Counted from the first letter of the stretch, positions 2,466-48,770 are shown. The stretch is 64,000 nucleotides of DNA from Candidatus Gygaella obscura (GCA_030765485.1 JAVCCR010000002.1:12288-76287); one strand, 5' to 3'. The notes: a model not told the origin generated them from the letters alone. Program-made: numbers and translations.

Positions 2466-3087
2466 TTATATAATGTTGTATTGACTCTTGAGTCTTAGAA
2501 ACACTTTTTTCTACCTTCACTAACTTTATCCTGTTGGAGGATTGTTTTGCCAATTTTAAATAACCATTTCTTACGCGTAAATGATAAGCAAGGTTTCTTT
2601 TTTCAATACGGTCTTTAGAGTTTTTTACTCTGTGACAATTCTTCAAACCCTGTTTTAAAGGTAAATCCAATAAAAAAGTTAAATCAGGCTTTAGGCCCAA
2701 ACTTACCAAACTGCCGATTTTTTTTATCAAAATAATATCTATCCCCAGACCATAACCTTGATAAGCAATCGTAGAATCAAGAAACCTATCACAAATGACA
2801 ACCTTACCTTTTTTTAATGCTGCAAGAATCAGCTCCTCGACAATCTGCGCACGCGCTGCCATATAAAGAAGCATTTCCGTAACTTTAGACATTTTTTTAT
2901 TCTCACAATCCAACAAAATATCTCTAATTTTCTCGCTTATCTTGGTACTTCCAGGCTCTCTTACAATAATACAATCGAGGCCACTACTCTTTAAAAAAGA
3001 ACAAAGCATTTTCGACTGAGTACTCTTACCTGAGCCTTCTGAACCTTCAAATGTTATAAAGATACCTTTTAAATCTTTTTTCGCCAT
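2425..3087 (-). CDS. tmk: Thymidylate kinase
   Basis: ITFEGSEGSGKSTQ P-loop and DRF motif (ICDRFLDS). Confidence 0.9.
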   Translation of the reverse strand: MAKKDLKGIFITFEGSEGSGKSTQSKMLCSFLKSSGLDCIIVREPGSTKISEKIRDILLDCENKKMSKVTEMLLYMAARAQIVEELILAALKKGKVVICDRFLDSTIAYQGYGLGIDIILIKKIGSLVSLGLKPDLTFLLDLPLKQGLKNCHRVKNSKDRIEKRNLAYHLRVRNGYLKLAKQSSNRIKLVKVEKSVSKTQESIQHYISALLKRKSYAGKK

Positions 3088-4499
3088 GTTGAGCCTTCTC
3101 TTGTATCTTCTATGACTATACCCTTTTTATCCAATGCCTCTCTTATCCTGTCTGCTTCTGTAAACTTTTTCTGCTTTTTAAAATCCAACCTTAAATTGAT
3201 TTGTCTATCGATTTCCTCTTTTGTAATATCTAATGTTTCAATTTCTAAAAACTTTAAACCAAATATCTCAGTCATTTCATTCATCACATCAAGAGCGTAA
3301 TGCAGTATAAAAGGTTTAAATTCATCATCACTATCTAGTAACTTATTACAATTATGGACCATATCGAATAATACCGATAATGCTCTTGGCATACTAAAAT
3401 CATTATCCATATATTCGATAAACTTATCTTTAAATAGCATCATATTGCCTGTACCCTGTTTAACCACCTTGGCTAAATCAACTGTACCAAAATGCTTAAT
3501 AAGCTTATCCCTTAGAATAACAATACTTTTATAAGACTCTTTCACTTCTTCTATTTTTTTATCACTATAATCAATAGACTGAGAGTAATGCGCGGATAAA
3601 AAGAAAAGTTTTAATAAATCCATATTCTTATATCTAGCCAGAAAATCCTTTATGGTTATAAAATTACCCGAAGACTTGGACATCTTCTGAGCGTTTATAG
3701 TCAGTAGGCCGTGATGTATCCAGCATTTTGCAAAGGGCTTTTCTGTTTTAGCCTCAGCCTGAGCGATTTCATTCTCATGATGCGGAAAAATTAAATCCCT
3801 TCCTCCAGCATGTATATCTAAGGTATCAGTTTTTAGATACTTTTGGCTCATTACCGAACACTCTATATGCCAGCCAGGCCTGCCGTCACCCCAAGGACTT
3901 GGCCAAAAAGGCTCATTTTCTTTTGCCTTTTTCCATAAAGCAAAATCAAGCGGGTCTTTTTTGGTCTCGTCATGGGATTTTCTTACACCCGTAAGCATCT
4001 GTTCTATGCTTTGATGAGAAAGTTTACCGTAATCAGTGAACTTGCGCACACTAAAGTAAACCCCTGTATCTGTCTCGTAAGCAAAGTCTTTTTCAATCAA
4101 GGCTTCAATATATTTAATAATATCTTGTATATTTTCCGTTGCTCTGGGTTCATCTGCACCATCAAGAATCCCTTTTTCTATTCCCAAAGAGGTTAAGTCT
4201 TCGTTATATCTAGCGATATACTTTTCAATCAGCTCTTTCCAATCAATTCCTAACTCATTAGCTCTATTAATAATCTTATCGTCGATATCAGTAATATTGC
4301 GTACAAAATTAACCTTAAAACCCCTATATTTTAAGTAGCGCCTAATAACATCAAAGATGTAAAGGCTTCTAGCATGACCAATATGACAATCGTCATAAAC
4401 CGTAACCCCGCAGGTATACATATTTACTGTATGCTGTTTATCGCTATCTAAAATAAACTCACCTTTACCTAATGAATTTTTTACTTTTACAATGACCAT
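3069..4499 (-). CDS. cysS: Cysteinyl-tRNA synthetase
   Basis: [19 protein letters not shown] (HIGH) and KMSKSSGN (KMSKS) motifs. 476 aa. Confidence 0.92.
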
Positions 4500-5661: not shown

Positions 5662-6350
5662 TTTTTATAATTTCTATTCCTTATCAAACTTTCAGCAAAA
5701 AGAATATCCTCTGGTGTTGTTATCTTAATATTTGAATAACTTCCCTTAAATAACGCTACTTTTCTACCTAATCTTTCTACAAGCAAAGAATCATCAGTAG
5801 GCGAGAACCTACCTTTTCTTTTTAAAACCATCTTAATTAAATCTACCTTGAATGCTTGCGGAGTCTGTATCTGCCAAAGCCTTGTTCTATCTAAAGTATT
5901 CTTGATGAAATTACCATTTTTATTGCTTTCTTTAATAGTTGAAATAACAGGTACGCCAACAACACAAGCACCACTGACAGCGGTTTTCTTAATACATTCT
6001 GTAATTGTTTTTTTATCTACAAACGGCCTTGCGACATCATGAATTACTACTATATTGGTATCTTTATCTAAACGCTTAACACCATTATTGACCGAATCAA
6101 CCCTTTTTTTACCACCGGCGCATAACAGTTTTATCTTTTTTATCTTGTATTTTCTAATCAATGAATCGATTATCGGTAAATCATCGTTTTTACATACAAT
6201 AATTATATTTGTAATCAGAGGATGTATAGAAAAAGTCTTTAATGTGCGGATTGCTATCGGAATATTTAAAACCTTGACTAAGGCCTTAGAAACTTTCCTT
6301 TTTAATCTTCTACCAGAACCGGCAGCTACAACAATAGCTTCTACTTTCAT
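5658..6350 (-). CDS. ispD: 2-C-methyl-D-erythritol 4-phosphate cytidylyltransferase
   Basis: AIVVAAGSGRRL nucleotidyltransferase motif. Overlaps ispF by 4 nt. Confidence 0.88.
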   Translation of the reverse strand: MKVEAIVVAAGSGRRLKRKVSKALVKVLNIPIAIRTLKTFSIHPLITNIIIVCKNDDLPIIDSLIRKYKIKKIKLLCAGGKKRVDSVNNGVKRLDKDTNIVVIHDVARPFVDKKTITECIKKTAVSGACVVGVPVISTIKESNKNGNFIKNTLDRTRLWQIQTPQAFKVDLIKMVLKRKGRFSPTDDSLLVERLGRKVALFKGSYSNIKITTPEDILFAESLIRNRNYKK

Positions 6351-6356
6351 TATTGA

Positions 6357-7361
6357 CTACTTATGGCTTCGTCTTGAAGAATGGTTTAATTCAATGCGCG
6401 CAAATATCATCCGTCCGGCCTGCGTCTGTAACGATGATGTAACAGCAACCTTTAAGGTTTCATTTATATGTCTTCTGCCGTTTTCTACAACTACCATTGT
6501 CCCATCATCCAAATAACCAATAGCCTGATTAGACTCTTTTCCTTCCTTGATAAGCTTGATTTCCAAAAATTCACCCGGGAATACAACAGGTTTCAAAGCA
6601 AGGCTTAACTCATTGATATTTAAAACCTTCACTCCCTGGATATCAGCAACGCGGTTTAGATTAAAATCAAGCGTAAGTATCTTTGCTGATAGCATCTTTG
6701 CCAGTCTTACCAGTTTTGCATCCACTTCTTTTATATCTGCGAAATCTTCTTCGCTTATACTAACGCTAACTTTACTGTCCTTCTGCAACATATTTAGAAT
6801 ATCGAGTCCTCTTCTTCCCCTTTGCCGCTTGAGCGAATCGGTAGAATCGGCTATCTGCTGAAGTTCTCTTAAAACAAAACGCGGAACAATTAACTTGGCA
6901 TCAATAAAATTTGTCTTGCAGATATCGGTTATTCTTCCATCAATAATAACGCTTGTATCAAGTAAAACTAAATCTTCCGGAGCGTTTTCTCTTTTAAACC
7001 TGACATAAGGAATTATCAGGTTAAACTCTTCCCTCCCGCGCAAGCCAAGAAGTAAACCTAAATAACAAAATACTATAGTTAAAGTGCCTCTTACAATATT
7101 TAAAGTTTCCAATTGAAGTTTAGCAAGACTAAAGGCATCACCAACCAATTTTGCCATAATCAAGCCTAGAATTAATCCAAATACCGAACTAGAAAGTCCT
7201 CTTACAGAAACCCTGCGCATACCAACCTCAAAAACAACAATCAAAATACCAACTATGCCTCCAGAGATTGCACCAAATAGACTATGCTGATTACCTACAG
7301 AATAAAAACCTATTAATACGCTACCTAAAATAAAAAGAAGCCTAATGAATATAACGCCCAT
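6357..7361 (-). CDS. yacL: Membrane-anchored PIN + TRAM domain protein (YacL-like)
   Basis: Two N-terminal TM helices, a PIN-like central region ([14 protein letters not shown]) and a C-terminal TRAM-like beta domain. Position between radA and ispD matches B. subtilis yacL. Confidence 0.7.
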
Positions 7362-19295: not shown

Positions 19296-19332
19296 AAAAA
19301 AAAGGCATTTTCATCACGAAAATGCCATTTTT
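19296..19332. terminator. Bidirectional rho-independent terminator between hppA and lysS
   Basis: An A8 run, stem GGCATTTTC / GAAAATGCC with a 5-nt loop, then a T5 run. Reads as hairpin plus U-tract on either strand. Confidence 0.7.
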
Positions 19333-42546: not shown

Positions 42547-42978
42547 CTAATTCTTTTTATACAAACCCACCAACTGCGCTTGAGCTAAAATATGAGACTG
42601 CATGATAGACTCTAGATCTTCTTTAGTTATTTCCTTTTCTGGATTCAGTACCTTGTCCAAAGCATATATTTTAAAACAATAACGGTGGGTGCCTGACGGC
42701 GGACAAGGCCCGTGATAGTTAAATCTTCCTGCAGTATTTATACCCTGTTTACCAGGTATAGTATTTTCTTCGATCAAATTAGTTATAAGAATATCAAAAA
42801 CTACCCAATGTACCCAAGTACCAATCGGTGCATCCGGATCATCCATTATTAAAGCTAGACTCTTTGCATTTTCTGGGATATCCTCAATAATCAAATCCGG
42901 ATTTACATCCTTACCCTGGCAGGTATATTTTGACGGAATAAAAACATTATTAGCAAAAGCAGAGCTTGATAACCGCAT
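42547..42978 (-). CDS. YbhB/YbcL (PEBP/RKIP) family protein
   Basis: GTHRYCFKIYALD signature of bacterial PEBP. 143 aa. Confidence 0.8.
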   Translation of the reverse strand: MRLSSSAFANNVFIPSKYTCQGKDVNPDLIIEDIPENAKSLALIMDDPDAPIGTWVHWVVFDILITNLIEENTIPGKQGINTAGRFNYHGPCPPSGTHRYCFKIYALDKVLNPEKEITKEDLESIMQSHILAQAQLVGLYKKN

Positions 42979-43185
42979 AAACTCACCTCCTCATATTGAT
43001 TAGAACTTTATCATCAAAACAATTTAATATAATTATTAACTATTGAAATTATTTTTCCCATTACCCCCTACTGCCAATGATACTTTGAAAAAATATAACT
43101 TTATTATACCAAAAGCCGTACAAAAGAAAACGCTTTCAAATTATTACACTTGACTACTTGTTTTCAGTTTAAATATAGGTTATAT

Positions 43186-43290
43186 TTGTTATAGATTTAA
43201 TAATCAACAAGGAGGCAGAGCGATAGCGTAAGCCACCAAGGATTATCGCCTTACAAGGAAACCCTTTTAAAAAGGGTTTTTTTGTTTTTA
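43186..43290 (+). ncRNA. Candidate small RNA (~100 nt) with its own promoter and intrinsic terminator; three (A)CAAGGA motifs
   Basis: TTGACT (43150-55) or TTGTTT (43158-63) -35 with an AT-rich -10 (ATATAG / TATATT) around 43173-86. Terminator AAACCCTTTT/AAAAGGGTTT plus TTTTTTTGTTTTT at 43259-43290. No start codon follows the internal AAGGAGG. GGA motifs at 43208-13, 43237-42 and 43254-59. Confidence 0.4.
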
Positions 43291-43295
43291 TACAC

Positions 43296-44990
43296 CTAAT
43301 AATCTTTATATTTATTGGTTACGGGAAGACGCCTATCTTTACCGAATGCCTTTTTGGATATCTTAACCCCTAAAGGAACCTGACGGCGCTTGTATTCGTT
43401 AGAATCGACCAAATTTACAACCTTTTTTATCAAATTAAAGCCCTTAGAGGTTTTTCGCCTGATCTTATCAACAGGCAAATCATCTTCTACATAATGCTTT
43501 AAAATATCATCCAATACATCGTAAGCAGGAAGACTATCCTGATCTTTTTGATTTAACTTCAATTCCGCACTAGGCGCTTTTTTTAATATATTGACAGGTA
43601 TTAAATTACCGTTATTCTTATTAAAAAACTCGGCCAGCTTATAAACCATGGTTTTAGGAACATCCTTTAACGCTGCAAAACCGCCAGCCATGTCTCCATA
43701 AAGGGTGCAGTAACCAACCGCAATCTCACTTTTATTGCCTGTAGTCAAAACTAGCCATTTAAATTTATTAGATAAAGCCATTAAAATATTGCCTCTTATG
43801 CGTGCTTGAATATTCTCTTCTGTAGTATCTATCTTTTTATTGATAAAAATCTTTTTTAACGTATCAATATAACTTTTAAAAATATCTTCTATTGATATAG
43901 AAAATGTTTTTATCTTCAACCTCCTAGCAAGCTCGCGGCTATCTTTTACAGAATCGCTGGAAGTAAAACGGGAATTCATAAAAACACCGATACAGTTGTT
44001 TTTTCCGATAGCATCAACAGCAATAGCGGCAACTAGGCTTGAATCTATCCCTCCGCTTAAACCTATAACAACTTTTTTAAAACCGTTCTTTACAATGTAA
44101 TCTCTGGTACCCAAAACAAGAGAATTATAAATCTCAGACAAGGTATCCAGATTATTGTAGTTATCTTTGACTAAAACTTTTCTTTTATTCTCAAAGGCTT
44201 TAAGTTTAATAATATCTCCTGAGTACCTTCTTTTTAGATTTTTTTTAAGCGGAATATCGGCAGTAACAAGCTGTTCTGTGAATTGACCGGCAATAGCGAT
44301 TATCTTTTTATCTTTATTCATAATAAGGCTATCACCGTCAAAAACAAGCTCATCTATACCTCCTACGAGATTGCAATATGCTATAGCAAGATTATTTTCA
44401 TCAATACGCCTAACCAAACCTTCTCTTCTGAAATGTTTCTTTCCGATATGAAACGGTGAAGCGGAAATATTAATAATTAACTCCGCGCCTTTTTTTGCAA
44501 GTGTTTTTGTAATATTGTTATCCTGCCAGATGTCCCAACAGATATTTACGCCGAAAAAGAGCCCAGCAAGAGAAAAAACAGGCGAATATTCTCCCGGAGT
44601 AAAATAGCGTTTTTCATCAAAGACGCTGTAATTAGGAAGATTGATTTTATGATAAATACCCCTTATCTTACCGTCGTTAATGATCGCTGCTGAATTATAA
44701 AGATTTTTATCTTCTCTATTTATAAAACCAAGAACGCAAGTAATGCCTTTGGTGTATTTTAAAATATTTTTTAAATACTTAAGATTGTCATCTACGAAGT
44801 GTTTTTTTAATATAAGATCTTCTGGCGGATATCCTGTTATCGCCAACTCAGGAAAAACCACTATATCAGAGCCAAGCTTTTTTGCATCAGCAATGTAGCT
44901 TATTATCTTATTTATGTTGTAATTTAGATCTCCCACTATGAGGTTAATCTGAGCCAGAGATATTCTTATTGATTTGTCTCTTCTTTTCAT
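43296..44990 (-). CDS. nadE: Glutamine-dependent NAD+ synthetase (nitrilase domain + NAD synthetase domain)
   Basis: N-terminal CN-hydrolase domain (FPELAITGYPPEDL) and C-terminal PP-loop SGGIDSS. 564 aa. Confidence 0.9.
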   Translation of the reverse strand: MKRRDKSIRISLAQINLIVGDLNYNINKIISYIADAKKLGSDIVVFPELAITGYPPEDLILKKHFVDDNLKYLKNILKYTKGITCVLGFINREDKNLYNSAAIINDGKIRGIYHKINLPNYSVFDEKRYFTPGEYSPVFSLAGLFFGVNICWDIWQDNNITKTLAKKGAELIINISASPFHIGKKHFRREGLVRRIDENNLAIAYCNLVGGIDELVFDGDSLIMNKDKKIIAIAGQFTEQLVTADIPLKKNLKRRYSGDIIKLKAFENKRKVLVKDNYNNLDTLSEIYNSLVLGTRDYIVKNGFKKVVIGLSGGIDSSLVAAIAVDAIGKNNCIGVFMNSRFTSSDSVKDSRELARRLKIKTFSISIEDIFKSYIDTLKKIFINKKIDTTEENIQARIRGNILMALSNKFKWLVLTTGNKSEIAVGYCTLYGDMAGGFAALKDVPKTMVYKLAEFFNKNNGNLIPVNILKKAPSAELKLNQKDQDSLPAYDVLDDILKHYVEDDLPVDKIRRKTSKGFNLIKKVVNLVDSNEYKRRQVPLGVKISKKAFGKDRRLPVTNKYKDY

Positions 44991-45067
44991 ATCAGCTATT
45001 ATACACTAAAGAGCTTAATAAGTTAAAATTAATTGTAGAGAAACTAGGTATATGGTATCATAAAACA

Positions 45068-46111
45068 ATGCTGCATAAAATAAAAAATAAACTCAACCAA
45101 GAACTGAAAATATTCATTAAAGATATCGACCAATTCTACAGATTAAAAGGAATTTCACCAGTTTTATCAAATAGCATTAAAGAGTTTTTGCTTCGTGATG
45201 GTAAGCGAATCCGCCCCATTCTACTAATTATCGGTTTTAAGGCCTTCTCCAGAAAAAATCCTTTCGGGTTATATAAATGCGCCCTGTCTTTAGAACTACT
45301 GCATGACTTTATGCTCGTACACGATGACATAATCGACAGATCTAACAAACGACGGGGAAAATCATCGATGCATAAAATGCTCGGGGATTACCTTAAACGC
45401 TACCCAAATTGCAAATCTTCCGGAAGCGACCTTGCAATAGTAACTGCAGATGTAATGTACGCTTTAGCAATCCATGCTTTTTTAAGTATAAAAATTGACT
45501 TTATCCTAAAAGAAAAGGCCTTAAGAAAATTCATAGAAGCTACAGTATTCACTGGAAGCGGCGAATTCATTGAACTGCTTTATAGCATAGAAAATATAGA
45601 TAAAATTAAAAAAGAAAAAATATTCAAAATATATGATTTAAAAACAGCCTTTTATACCTTTGCCGCTCCTCTGGCAATGGGAGCAATACTTGCAGGAGCA
45701 AACAATACCGAAATAAATAAAATCTTTAAAATTGGCCTTAATCTGGGTCGCGCCTTTCAGATAAAAGACGATATAATCGGCATGTTCAGCGAACAAAAAC
45801 AAAGCGGTAAATCTTCGCTTACCGATCTACAGGAAGCTAAAAAGACCCTGCTTATATGGCATGCGTACAATAAAAACTCTAAAAACAAAATGGCTATAAA
45901 GAATATACTTAATAAAAAGAAGGTAACTAAAACAGACCTTGTAAAGATGAGAAAGCTATTAAAAACTAGCGGCTCCCTTGACTATGCCAAAAACCAAATC
46001 TCAGAATTAAATACCACGGTAAAGAAATTGATTACTAATTCAAGAATGAGAAAAAAATACAAACTCGTTCTTGAAAACCTTACTAAGGATATCCTTCTTA
46101 AAAAATGTTAA
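45068..46111 (+). CDS. Polyprenyl diphosphate synthase (trans-IPPS; GGPP/FPP synthase family)
   Basis: First Asp-rich motif LVHDDIIDRSNKRRG and second motif FQIKDDIIG. The ORF-track start at 44969 overlaps nadE; an internal Met (MLHKIKNKL) is more plausible. Confidence 0.8.
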   Translation: MLHKIKNKLNQELKIFIKDIDQFYRLKGISPVLSNSIKEFLLRDGKRIRPILLIIGFKAFSRKNPFGLYKCALSLELLHDFMLVHDDIIDRSNKRRGKSSMHKMLGDYLKRYPNCKSSGSDLAIVTADVMYALAIHAFLSIKIDFILKEKALRKFIEATVFTGSGEFIELLYSIENIDKIKKEKIFKIYDLKTAFYTFAAPLAMGAILAGANNTEINKIFKIGLNLGRAFQIKDDIIGMFSEQKQSGKSSLTDLQEAKKTLLIWHAYNKNSKNKMAIKNILNKKKVTKTDLVKMRKLLKTSGSLDYAKNQISELNTTVKKLITNSRMRKKYKLVLENLTKDILLKKC

Positions 46112-46132
46112 AAATAGTTTCACAATATTAAT

Positions 46133-46972
46133 ATGAAAATCAATCTTGCAAAATCAACTGGCTTTTGTTTTGGTGTGCGTCGCGCTTTAAAAATCGCATA
46201 TGACACAGTAAAACTTTCTGCAACAGTAGAAATGCTAGGAGATATAGTCCATAACGAAGAGGTAGTTAAAGATATTGATAAAATCGGGATCAAAAAAATC
46301 GTCAAACTTAAAATAGGTAGAAATAAACTGCTCCTTATAAGAGCGCATGGAGTTGGCGAGAAGACAATAAAAAAAGCTAGTGCCTTAGGTTATAAAATAA
46401 TCGATGCCACATGCCCCATGGTAAAAGAAATCCATAAAATTGCAATTGAAATGGAAAAAAAAGGCTACACGATAATCATCATTGGAGACAAAAAACATGA
46501 CGAGGTGCAAGGCATTATTGGCCAATTAAAAAAGAAAGCCATCGCCATTGATGCTGTAAATCCTTTACCTTTGAACAAACTTCGTAAAATAAAAAAAGCA
46601 GCAGTTATAGTTCAATCTACCCAAAACTATGATCGGGTAACTAAAATAATTGGTATAATGAAAAAAGAAATAAAACAACTTAAATCCTTTAATACAATCT
46701 GCAATCCTACAAGACTTAAACAACAAGAAATAAAAAAGCTCCCCAAAAGAAATGATATTATGATAATAATCGGCTCCAAACACAGCGCTAACACAAAAAG
46801 GCTTTATCAGATTTCAAAATCCCTAAATAAAAAAAGTTATTGGGTACAAACTTATAAAGGTTTGAAAAAAGAATGGTTTAAGAAAGTGAAAAATGTTGGT
46901 ATTGCAGCTGGATCCTCCACACCTGATAAAACTACAAGATCTGTAATCGACTTTATTAATAATCTTAAATAA
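46133..46972 (+). CDS. ispH: 4-hydroxy-3-methylbut-2-enyl diphosphate reductase
   Basis: MKINLAKSTGFCFGVRRAL N-terminus with conserved Cys, and the ATCP motif (ATCPMV). 279 aa. Confidence 0.9.
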   Translation: MKINLAKSTGFCFGVRRALKIAYDTVKLSATVEMLGDIVHNEEVVKDIDKIGIKKIVKLKIGRNKLLLIRAHGVGEKTIKKASALGYKIIDATCPMVKEIHKIAIEMEKKGYTIIIIGDKKHDEVQGIIGQLKKKAIAIDAVNPLPLNKLRKIKKAAVIVQSTQNYDRVTKIIGIMKKEIKQLKSFNTICNPTRLKQQEIKKLPKRNDIMIIIGSKHSANTKRLYQISKSLNKKSYWVQTYKGLKKEWFKKVKNVGIAAGSSTPDKTTRSVIDFINNLK

Positions 46973-47103
46973 ATTTTTTAAAAAATTCACCCCATAACAC
47001 ACTTGAGCCTACTATCACAACCTCCAATTTTTGTTTTAATTACATATTTGTCTCCAGATAGGATTGACCTTAAAATTAATCTTAAAGAAATATAAAAAAT
47101 TAC

Positions 47104-47142
47104 TTGACAAGTGTAAATGATATGTTATAGTTAACTTGTCAA
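47104..47142 (+). promoter_or_regulatory. Sigma70-type promoter (TTGACA-16 nt-TATAGT) framed by a perfect 9-bp inverted repeat TTGACAAGT...ACTTGTCAA (putative operator) upstream of the HTH-glnA gene
   Basis: TTGACA 47104-09, TATAGT 47126-31. Inverted-repeat arms 47104-12 and 47134-42, centres 30 bp apart. Strong SD AAAGGAGGAG at 47166-75, ATG at 47179. Confidence 0.65.
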
Positions 47143-47178
47143 TCGTAAAGTAACATAACAATCGTCAAAGGAGGAGAC

Positions 47179-48714
47179 ATGAATAAAGAATTCTTAAGCC
47201 CAACAGAAGCAGCGAAAGTACTTAAAATCTCAAGGCAGGCTGTAATTGAACGCATTAAACATGGTTCATTAAAGGCTGATAAAGTGGGTAAACAATATAT
47301 AATCGCCTTAGAAGAGATCGAAAACCAAAAAGGCTTTGGTGTTGAATTAAAAAATGACAGTTCTTCTATTCCCTCACCAAAGATATCCAACAAGGATTCA
47401 ACAAAAGAGATATTAAAAATAGTTAATCAACACGATATAAGAACAATCCAGCTGTGGTTTGTCGATATTTTAGGAATATTAAAGTGCGTTTCCATCACCA
47501 AAGGAGAATTAAAAGACGCCCTAGAACACGGTAAAGGTTTTGACGGCTCATCTGTTACTGGGTTTGCCGAGGCTGAAGAAAGTGATATTATTGCTTTACC
47601 TGATCCTTCTACATTTAAGATACTTCCCTGGACAACTAAAGACTATCCGATTGCTCGAATGTTTTGCGATATACTAAATACAAACGGTACCCCTTATGCA
47701 GGAGATCCAAGACATGTACTTAAAAGAGCTCTTGAAAGAGCAAAAAAATTGGGTTTTGATTTTTATATCGGTGCGGAATTAGAGTATTTTTATTTCAAAT
47801 CATCAACCAAACCCGAAATAATTGATGAAGGTTCTTATTTCGAACTAATACCGAATGATCTGGCTAATACTCTCAGAAACAAAACCGTAAGGGTGCTTGA
47901 AGAAATGGGAATTACCATGGAAGCAACTCATCATGAAGTAGCACCCAGCCAACATGAAATTGACCCTAAATATACCGATGCCTTAAAAGCAGCAGATAAC
48001 GTCATTACCTGTAAATACGTCATAAAAGAAATCGCCCAGCAAAGCGGCGTATACGCTACCTTTATGCCAAAACCTCTTTTTGGACATAACGGTTCAGGCA
48101 TGCACATACACCAATCATTATTCAAAAAGGATAAAAACTCCTTTTTTGAAAAAAAGGATAAACATCATCTATCTAACATTGCAAAACATTTTATATCCGG
48201 TCAGCTTAAACACGCCCGGGAAATCTGTTCTCTTACTGCCCAATGGGTAAACTCTTACAAAAGGCTTGTTTCAGGATATGAAGCTCCTGTTTATGCCTCT
48301 TGGGCACAGAAAAACAGAACCACACTAATAAGAGTACCCATGTACAGACCCGGCAATGAAAAGGCAACACGTGCAGAACTGCGTTGTCCAGATCCAGCCT
48401 GCAATCCATACCTGGCATTTGCTGTTATGCTGACTGCAGGTTTAGAGGGAATTGAAAAAAAATATCCCCTTCCTGCCCCTGTTGAACCGAATATATATAA
48501 TATGGCTATGGAGGAAAGAGAAAAACGTGGCCTTACCTCTTTACCGGGAAACCTTTTTGAAGCAATACTAGAGACCGAAAATAGTCAATTCGTAAAAGAA
48601 ACTTTGGGAAACCATATCTTCAACCGTTTCCTTTTCAATAAAAAGAAAGAATGGGAAGAATATAGAATCCAAATAACCCAACATGAAATCAAAAAATACT
48701 TACCTCTACTATAG
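47179..48714 (+). CDS. glnA: Glutamine synthetase with an N-terminal HTH_17 (excisionase/MerR-like) DNA-binding domain
   Basis: Residues about 5-50, SPTEAAKVLKISRQAVIERIKHGSLKADKVGKQYII, form an HTH_17. The remaining about 450 aa carry GS beta-grasp and catalytic domains (IRTIQLWFVDILG..., NGSGMHIHQS, the ATP-binding region). Confidence 0.8.
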   Translation: MNKEFLSPTEAAKVLKISRQAVIERIKHGSLKADKVGKQYIIALEEIENQKGFGVELKNDSSSIPSPKISNKDSTKEILKIVNQHDIRTIQLWFVDILGILKCVSITKGELKDALEHGKGFDGSSVTGFAEAEESDIIALPDPSTFKILPWTTKDYPIARMFCDILNTNGTPYAGDPRHVLKRALERAKKLGFDFYIGAELEYFYFKSSTKPEIIDEGSYFELIPNDLANTLRNKTVRVLEEMGITMEATHHEVAPSQHEIDPKYTDALKAADNVITCKYVIKEIAQQSGVYATFMPKPLFGHNGSGMHIHQSLFKKDKNSFFEKKDKHHLSNIAKHFISGQLKHAREICSLTAQWVNSYKRLVSGYEAPVYASWAQKNRTTLIRVPMYRPGNEKATRAELRCPDPACNPYLAFAVMLTAGLEGIEKKYPLPAPVEPNIYNMAMEEREKRGLTSLPGNLFEAILETENSQFVKETLGNHIFNRFLFNKKKEWEEYRIQITQHEIKKYLPLL

Positions 48715-48734: not shown

Positions 48735-48770
48735 AATAAAAAAGGCAGCAAAATTAGCTGCCTTTTTTAT
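48735..48770. terminator. Bidirectional intrinsic terminator between glnA (+) and ldh (-)
   Basis: A-run, stem GGCAGC (loop AAAATTA) GCTGCC, then T6. Confidence 0.7.

Follow-up and report, generated by a model that had tools for sequence, protein, structure and literature searches.

A predicted small non-coding RNA gene convergent with nadE in the Omnitrophota bacterium Candidatus Gygaella obscura

Gene layout of the nadE locus

In the stretch of DNA analysed here (hereafter the window; 64,000 nt of Candidatus Gygaella obscura, GCA_030765485.1 JAVCCR010000002.1:12288-76287), a 317-bp intergenic gap at 42979-43295 lies between a PEBP-family gene (42547-42978) and nadE, the gene for NAD synthetase (43296-44990). 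Both genes are on the minus strand, in agreement with the first-pass annotation of this DNA, which had placed in the gap an orphan promoter-to-terminator unit encoding a ~100-nt RNA that resembled the sponges of CsrA/RsmA. Our analysis predicts a small non-coding RNA of ~98 nt on the plus strand at 43193-43290, its 5′ end taken from the position of the -10 element and its 3′ end from the U-tract. We infer the transcription, ends, strand and trans-acting function of this RNA from sequence.

Omnitrophota, a large phylum related to the PVC group and nearly without cultured members, consist of very small bacteria that may depend on hosts; we know of no regulatory RNA reported from them. Candidatus Gygaella obscura was described as an Omnitrophota metagenome-assembled genome (MAG) (PMC8542988). 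The NadE protein of the window is 100% identical to one annotated as Candidatus Gygaella obscura in the protein database, and the locus was found on contigs assembled from metagenomes of Ace Lake, Antarctica. Across the 317-bp gap, 2 SNPs separate the window from five further assemblies of this lake, which are strain-level copies. The SNPs are 43064 C>T and 43074 C>A, both outside the RNA unit and upstream of the PEBP gene, in a stretch that cannot be aligned with the relative described below.

The window has a G+C content of ~35% and a strong GC skew. The minus strand carries 61 of the 65 ORF-level genes, an extreme bias, and the skew is steady at ~ -0.24 apart from a dip to -0.05 over 44001-48000, a segment containing three of the four plus-strand genes. 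Next to nadE, the longest ORF of a polyprenyl synthetase gene (44969-46111, plus strand) starts with TTG, encodes 380 aa and shares 22 nt with the start of nadE; in public gene calls this protein is shorter, at 347 aa.

For comparison we used the Omnitrophota MAG M55B134 (JAGYNB01), so that every comparative statement below is limited to two species. A search of the genome collection with NadE gave 78% identity for this MAG and 54% or less for all others, and a search of the protein database with full-length NadE gave 100%, 78% and then at most 57%. With the C-terminal 150 residues of NadE as query, no fragment above 65% identity was listed, and the full-length proteins at 100% and 78% were also unlisted. 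M55B134 has an additional gene, for a pyridine-nucleotide-disulphide oxidoreductase (2877-3998), directly upstream of nadE.

Candidate promoter of the RNA unit

On the plus strand, a candidate -35 hexamer TTGTTT (43158-43163) is followed 17 nt later by a -10 hexamer TATATT (43181-43186). The corresponding hexamers of M55B134 are TTGATT and TATAGT: the alignment keeps the position of TTGnTT, the spacing is exactly 17 nt in both sequences, and an A stands 7 nt past the -10 in both. The spacer itself is 58.8% identical, although the hexamers that flank it are kept. The first-pass annotation had offered two plus-strand -35 candidates, and this pair is the one that stood; the other, TTGACT at 43150, lacks a usable -10 and is not conserved in M55B134.

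A consensus promoter scan called no plus-strand promoter in the gap, and it missed this -35 because TTGTTT matches TTGACA at only 3 of 6 positions. The organism uses canonical promoters elsewhere, for example a conserved TTGCAA-17-TATAAT upstream of a cation-efflux gene, and the scan found promoter-like sites at near chance density (10 found, 6.9 expected). Both the missing call and this density bear on an alternative without any RNA gene, in which the hairpin downstream would be a two-way terminator of nadE, the conserved DNA would regulate the minus-strand promoter, and the plus-strand promoter would have arisen by chance in AT-rich DNA. They speak for that alternative at the promoter, where hexamers kept round a diverged spacer, the pattern of a working promoter, speak against it.

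Terminator and probable transcribed strand

The predicted transcript ends in an intrinsic terminator at 43253-43290 (plus strand), formed by a 15-pair stem (ACAAGGAAACCCTTT/AAAGGGTTTTTTTGT) and a U-tract. The strong plus-strand terminator proposed at first reading was recovered here: the terminator scan called the 15-pair stem at 43253-43285 with TTTTT directly after it, and the 103-nt fold that includes the terminator reaches -28.3 kcal/mol (z = -5.0). The third CAAGGA (43254-43259), which had been placed just 5′ of the terminator stem, turned out to be inside the extended stem, as its A-rich 5′ arm, paired with the U-tract.

The two strands differ at this hairpin. After the stem, the plus strand has seven U's followed by GUUUUU, and the minus strand reads UUUCCUUG; with a criterion of 6 T's in 8 positions, the hairpin at 43253-43290 passed the T-run test on the plus strand only in the window. 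By inspection, the minus-strand tail of M55B134, TTTTCTTG, also satisfies this criterion. G-U pairs extend the stem on the plus strand only, the minus strand having A-C mismatches there, and a G-to-A change in M55B134 converts one of these G-U pairs to A-U. The conserved promoter, the U-run after the stem and the plus-only G-U pairs together favour the plus strand as the one transcribed, and the hairpin probably also stops nadE transcription arriving from the opposite side.

The only other strong intergenic intrinsic terminators in the 64 kb are at 19304-19326 and 48738-48768. Both are symmetrical and passed the T-run test on both strands. Upstream of the one at 19304-19326 the plus strand carries no gene, which means that the RNA unit is not alone in having a terminator side without a gene. 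This example of a two-way terminator with a T-run on its gene-less side fits the alternative without an RNA gene, as does the M55B134 hairpin with its T-run on the nadE strand; the window, in which the T-run is good on the plus strand only, does not.

A different alternative places the function on the minus strand, either as a 3′-UTR element or as a small RNA from the nadE 3′ UTR whose anti-Shine-Dalgarno-like motifs would block the ribosome-binding sites of targets. The complement of the RNA holds CCUCCUUG, UCCUUGG and UCCUUGU, that is, three UCCUUG or CCUCCUUG motifs of the classic anti-Shine-Dalgarno-like seed type, and the nadE-side terminator is imperfect in the window, which makes read-through plausible. 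Taken without the terminator, the body folds as well on the minus strand (-13.2 kcal/mol, z = -1.6) as on the plus strand (-11.8 kcal/mol, z = -1.7), and folding leaves the strand unsettled because the body is weakly structured on both. On the minus strand, however, the hairpin precedes the body, and no minus-strand terminator-like hairpin was called downstream of the body in the gap. The A-C mismatches fall where the plus strand has G-U pairs, and the conserved promoter is on the plus strand, with none seen for a minus-strand small RNA. We regard a functional minus strand as improbable.

Conservation of the RNA unit in M55B134

In M55B134 too, the RNA unit directly follows nadE on the opposite strand, so that position, orientation and convergence with nadE are all unchanged. 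The far flank differs between the two genomes in the presence or absence of pncA, and the unit stays joined to nadE and to a conserved promoter block described below. Identity between the two species is 87.8% over the RNA (43193-43290) and 94.7% over the terminator, compared with 75.7% over the nadE coding sequence, 55.5% at nadE third codon positions and 41% over 43141-43157. The conservation of the RNA thus exceeds the neutral background, given by 55.5% at third positions of nadE and 41-59% in the adjacent spacer. Promoter, body and terminator are all kept while neighbouring DNA has diverged, which upholds the original description of an orphan promoter-to-terminator unit of ~100 nt, and the sharp contrast in identity inside a single gap argues for a constrained unit. 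Identity alone is no proof of function at the RNA level, because another intergenic region, which holds promoters only, is 82% identical between the window and M55B134.

That promoter-only region is a further point for the alternative without an RNA gene. It is opposed by the ~60 nt that are conserved between promoter and terminator, including invariant runs of 13 and 17 nt, and by the distance of these ~60 nt from the minus-strand -10 (43103-43113), from which they are separated by the stretch of 41% identity. On balance we consider it unlikely that the gap holds no RNA gene.

The layout also raises the possibility of a convergent transcript acting in cis, through transcriptional interference by collision with nadE or through antisense control of NAD synthetase at the nadE 3′ end, with the sequence of the RNA being secondary. 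In favour of this, both species have the unit convergent with nadE and directly against its stop codon, although their flanks on the other side differ. The strong terminator, however, lies 6 nt before the nadE stop codon, so that overlap would need read-through, and the invariant 13-nt and 17-nt blocks of the body would be left unexplained. An action of this kind in cis seems very improbable to us.

Motifs and coding potential of the RNA body

Two blocks of the body are invariant between the species. The 13-nt block AACAAGGAGGCAG (43206-43218) contains the first CAAGGA together with AAGGAGG and supplies the 5′ strand of predicted helix P1; the 17-nt block AGCCACCAAGGATTATC (43231-43247) contains the second CAAGGA, completes P1 on the 3′ side and provides the 5′ side of a second predicted helix, P2. 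CAAGGA occurs on the plus strand at 43208, 43237 and 43254, exactly as first annotated, and the cluster is unusual: three [AC]AAGGA motifs within 52 nt are found nowhere else in the window on either strand, and at least three GGA are found in just 0.5% of 52-nt plus-strand windows of the 64 kb. The AAGGAGG noted at first reading is likewise present (43209-43215) and is a perfect Shine-Dalgarno-like sequence.

No ORF of at least 20 aa occurs in the RNA body of either the window or M55B134. A small-protein reading was rejected since the frame is unconserved on either strand, the window offering AUA-GCG-UAA and M55B134 a frame of 15 codons; the earlier statement that the unit lacks a translatable ORF is consistent with these results. 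A tRNA-like reading suggested by GCCACCA was also dropped, as ARAGORN finds nothing.

Two of the three GGA sites are conserved. The third CAAGGA is CAAGAA in M55B134, which has gained a GGGAG in the P1 loop, so that each species has three GGA.

Predicted folding

The RNAalifold consensus of the two sequences consists of P1, P2 and the terminator, with 0 covarying pairs. P1 pairs GGAGGC (43211-43216) with GCCACC (43232-43237), in the form GG-GGC/GCC-CC round a 15-nt loop, and P2 is a weak helix of AAGG (43238-43241) with CCUU (43249-43252). Every change between the species in the body and terminator is either in a predicted loop or leaves pairing intact, and the other differences are in the unpaired 5′ leader.

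The first-pass annotation had placed one GGA in the loop of a hairpin formed by GCGATA (43220-43225) and TATCGC (43244-43249). That hairpin would indeed loop out the second GGA, but the structure is suboptimal, being less stable than the minimum-energy fold by 3.7-4.2 kcal/mol. Between the species, one of its pairs is compensated (C-G to A-U) and another is broken, which is not significant with n = 2. In a further alternative, the 5′ region pairs with AUUAUC in a register that is shifted between the species.

The unpaired probabilities in the window are 0.03-0.05 for the GG of the first site, 0.34 and 0.03 for the G's of the second and 0.00-0.01 for the third. In M55B134 the G's of the second site are about half unpaired (0.47 and 0.53). 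The conserved GGAs are mostly paired in the minimum-energy and consensus folds.

Assessment of the CsrA-sponge interpretation

The arrangement had been likened to RsmY, RsmZ and CsrB, RNAs whose GGA motifs titrate the CsrA dimer off mRNAs. CsrA recognises the consensus A(N)GGA or ACARGGA, and one dimer can bridge two sites over a range of distances that includes 29 nt. The motifs of the RNA unit agree with this consensus, its two invariant sites lie 29 nt apart, and the window has no second triplet of [AC]AAGGA as tight as this one, which fits within 52 nt. The loss of the third site in M55B134 is matched by the gain of GGGAG, keeping three GGA per species, and the size and terminator are similar to those of small Rsm RNAs.

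Other evidence points away from a sponge. Known CsrA sponges carry many more GGA sites, compared with only two or three here, and one of these belongs to the terminator as its A-rich arm and is not conserved. Stems take up most of the conserved GGA positions in the minimum-energy and consensus folds. Rfam 15 gave no match at the gathering score anywhere in the window, and no CsrB, CsrC, RsmX, RsmY or RsmZ was found in the gap or its M55B134 counterpart even at E<=10. At that threshold, weak matches to unrelated families appeared, such as MCS4 (28 bits, cut-off 56) and STnc430 (25 bits, cut-off 47), most of them spanning little more than the terminator hairpin. The Rfam comparison suggested by the first-pass annotation therefore lends no support to the Csr/Rsm families.

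The protein partner was also searched for. With E. coli and B. subtilis CsrA as queries, tblastn found no CsrA in the 64-kb window or the related loci, and it found no Hfq or ProQ in the 64-kb window, which is part of a larger genome. A CsrA profile search of the protein database returned gammaproteobacterial CsrA only and is uninformative for the Omnitrophota lineage. In bacteria other than Gammaproteobacteria, CsrA usually belongs to a CsrA-FliW module tied to the flagellum. A 2026 survey found csrA in ~30% of genomes, with frequent occurrence in the related phylum Planctomycetota, a point in favour of a sponge, and with an ancestral tie to FliW and flagella (PMC13443453). Ace Lake Omnitrophota MAGs have been reported to lack motility genes (PMC8542988), which lowers the prior for an ancestral flagellum-linked CsrA-FliW system.

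With no Rfam match and with two conserved GGA sites that lie mostly in stems, the CsrA-sponge label is not supported, and we think it improbable that the RNA is a sponge of the CsrA/RsmA type. The first-pass annotation had allowed for another class of small regulatory RNA as a fallback, and that reading is the better one.

Putative divergent promoter block and a possible link to NAD metabolism

Between the RNA unit and the PEBP gene, a conserved block at 43103-43140 (minus strand) comprises an extended -10, TTTGGTATAAT (43103-43113), and a palindrome, GAAAaCGcTTTC (43127-43138). The minus strand of the block reads TTGAAAGCGTTTTC...TTTGGTATAAT, with the palindrome (also given as GAAAACGCTTTC) preceding the -10. 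The block is 78.9% identical to its counterpart in M55B134 (~5855-5891) and is likely the promoter and operator of the downstream minus-strand gene. The palindrome is centred near -60 of the start of the small RNA; it may be an operator shared with the promoter of the small RNA, possibly for an NAD-related regulator. No second copy of the palindrome box above chance was found in the window.

The gene behind the block differs between the species. In the window the block precedes the PEBP gene, and in M55B134 it precedes the nicotinamidase gene pncA (6047-6640, plus strand; NCBIfam NF008623, 184.5 bits, cut-off 174), which lies between nadE and the PEBP gene. The locus of Candidatus Gygaella obscura is without pncA and has 114 nt of unalignable sequence instead (42989-43102); pncA has been cleanly lost or gained here, and the promoter block has come through the change undamaged. 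In M55B134 the RNA unit accordingly sits between two NAD genes, with its promoter back-to-back with that of pncA. Since it lies there between nadE and pncA and beside a conserved palindrome, a link of the small RNA to NAD metabolism is possible.

Two cis-regulatory readings of this region were rejected. A minus-strand riboswitch for pncA or the PEBP gene would have its elements in the wrong order, being upstream of the minus-strand -10 and with the hairpin before the body. An antiterminator formed by 43120-43140 with the 3′ arm of the terminator would be no more than an A-run paired with a T-run and would fall outside the RNA as predicted.

Searches for copies, homologues and targets

In a covariance-model search of the window with filters off, the RNA unit was single copy, the matches being itself and other terminators. 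The 17-nt block (43231-43247), searched in the window with up to 3 mismatches, had no other copy except one at chance level. Distant Omnitrophota nadE loci (L007-L011) have other neighbours and gave no covariance-model match, and the plasmid and phage collections held no meaningful match to the RNA unit.

A search of the metagenome collection with the pattern AAGGAGGCAGN{8,20}GCCACCAAGGA gave 33 matches, all judged to be chance, of which 32 are in GC-rich, apparently coding DNA. This negative result is weak for the lineage because the Ace Lake source contigs (Ga0075114-6) are missing from the collection. One contig, Ga0056123_1018725 (L035), has at 701-734 on its minus strand AAGGAGGCAGGGAACCTCGCTAAGCCACCAAGGAGATCGCC, with a 13-nt gap as in the window and 9 extra matching bases. 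It was rejected as a homologue: the contig has 40-65% G+C, no terminator and no covariance-model match, and the resemblance is probably chance.

Among the 68 translation-initiation regions of the window, the best target duplex was with the adjacent PEBP gene (-37 kcal/mol), a value equalled by 1 of 25 shuffled RNAs, and the segment of the RNA that pairs with it is not conserved in M55B134. No conserved pairing was found with the start regions of nadE, pncA or PEBP.

Discussion

We prefer the reading that 43193-43290 of the plus strand is a gene in its own right, specifying a small non-coding RNA of ~98 nt, and assign this a probability of about one half. A sigma-70-type promoter (TTGTTT, 17 nt, TATATT) would point from the PEBP-side promoter toward the 3′ end of nadE, and a Rho-independent terminator would end the transcript, the same hairpin stopping the convergent nadE. 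In between, the body of the transcript would be weakly structured, with AACAAGGAGGCAG and AGCCACCAAGGAUUAUC as two purine-rich blocks that do not vary between the species; a U-rich 3′ tail would come after it. Such an RNA would most likely be a riboregulator acting in trans, with the invariant blocks as its contact surface, which would engage either CU-rich sequences by base pairing or a protein. The RNA is probably an ordinary, unclassified small regulatory RNA.

A bolder proposal is that the RNA is a decoy offering Shine-Dalgarno-like (A/C)CAAGGA sites to a regulator that recognises GGA, CsrA or an analogue, in a non-motile member of the Omnitrophota, and is wired to NAD metabolism through the operator shared with pncA. 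We consider this very improbable; if true, it would to our knowledge be the first such small RNA antagonist outside Proteobacteria.

A conserved small RNA with clear ends would provide a handle for mining metatranscriptomes and for covariance-model searches in the emerging genomes of Gygaellales, and its position between nadE and pncA in M55B134 hints at post-transcriptional control of NAD supply.

Comparison with known regulatory RNAs and terminators

RsmX/RsmY/RsmZ and CsrB/CsrC of Gammaproteobacteria are, like the RNA unit, orphan intergenic RNAs with their own promoter and a Rho-independent terminator, and the smallest Rsm RNAs are close to it in size. An independent unit ended by a Rho-independent terminator is common to most small RNAs and is not specific to Csr/Rsm. 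The repeated (A/C)CAAGGA motifs are also comparable and fit the CsrA consensus. However, the RNA unit has no sequence or structure similarity to these families, its two conserved GGAs are mostly in predicted stems, and an upstream box of the GacA/UvrY type is not visible. The RNA unit also comes from another phylum, Omnitrophota.

Bidirectional terminators between convergent genes share with the RNA unit a GC-cored hairpin with an A-rich run and a T-run, right after the nadE stop in this case, and the terminators at 19304-19326 and 48738-48768 show the same architecture within the window. The RNA unit differs from them in that its convergent partner is a conserved non-coding body of ~60 nt with a promoter.

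OxyS (beside oxyR) and GcvB (beside gcvA) are generally known to be terminator-ended, divergent from a neighbouring gene and driven by their own sigma-70-type promoter, and the RNA unit is predicted to be alike in all three respects. It differs in having no homology to any described small RNA. Seeds of small RNAs are usually anti-Shine-Dalgarno-like, whereas the invariant blocks of the RNA unit are purine-rich and Shine-Dalgarno-like, and the gene divergent from it encodes an enzyme (pncA or PEBP) instead of a transcription factor.

OxyS and GcvB are examples of generic trans-encoded small RNAs, with which the RNA unit shares a length of ~100 nt, a weakly structured body, short invariant blocks that could be single-stranded, and a strong terminator with a long U tail, as well as a position back-to-back with a neighbouring promoter and a palindrome as candidate shared operator. 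It is intergenic, with a predicted promoter of its own, an intrinsic terminator and no conserved ORF, as is generally expected of such RNAs. We take it to be a plausible and conserved small RNA gene, hitherto undescribed and ordinary in its architecture, and one more unclassified candidate among the small RNAs of bacteria.
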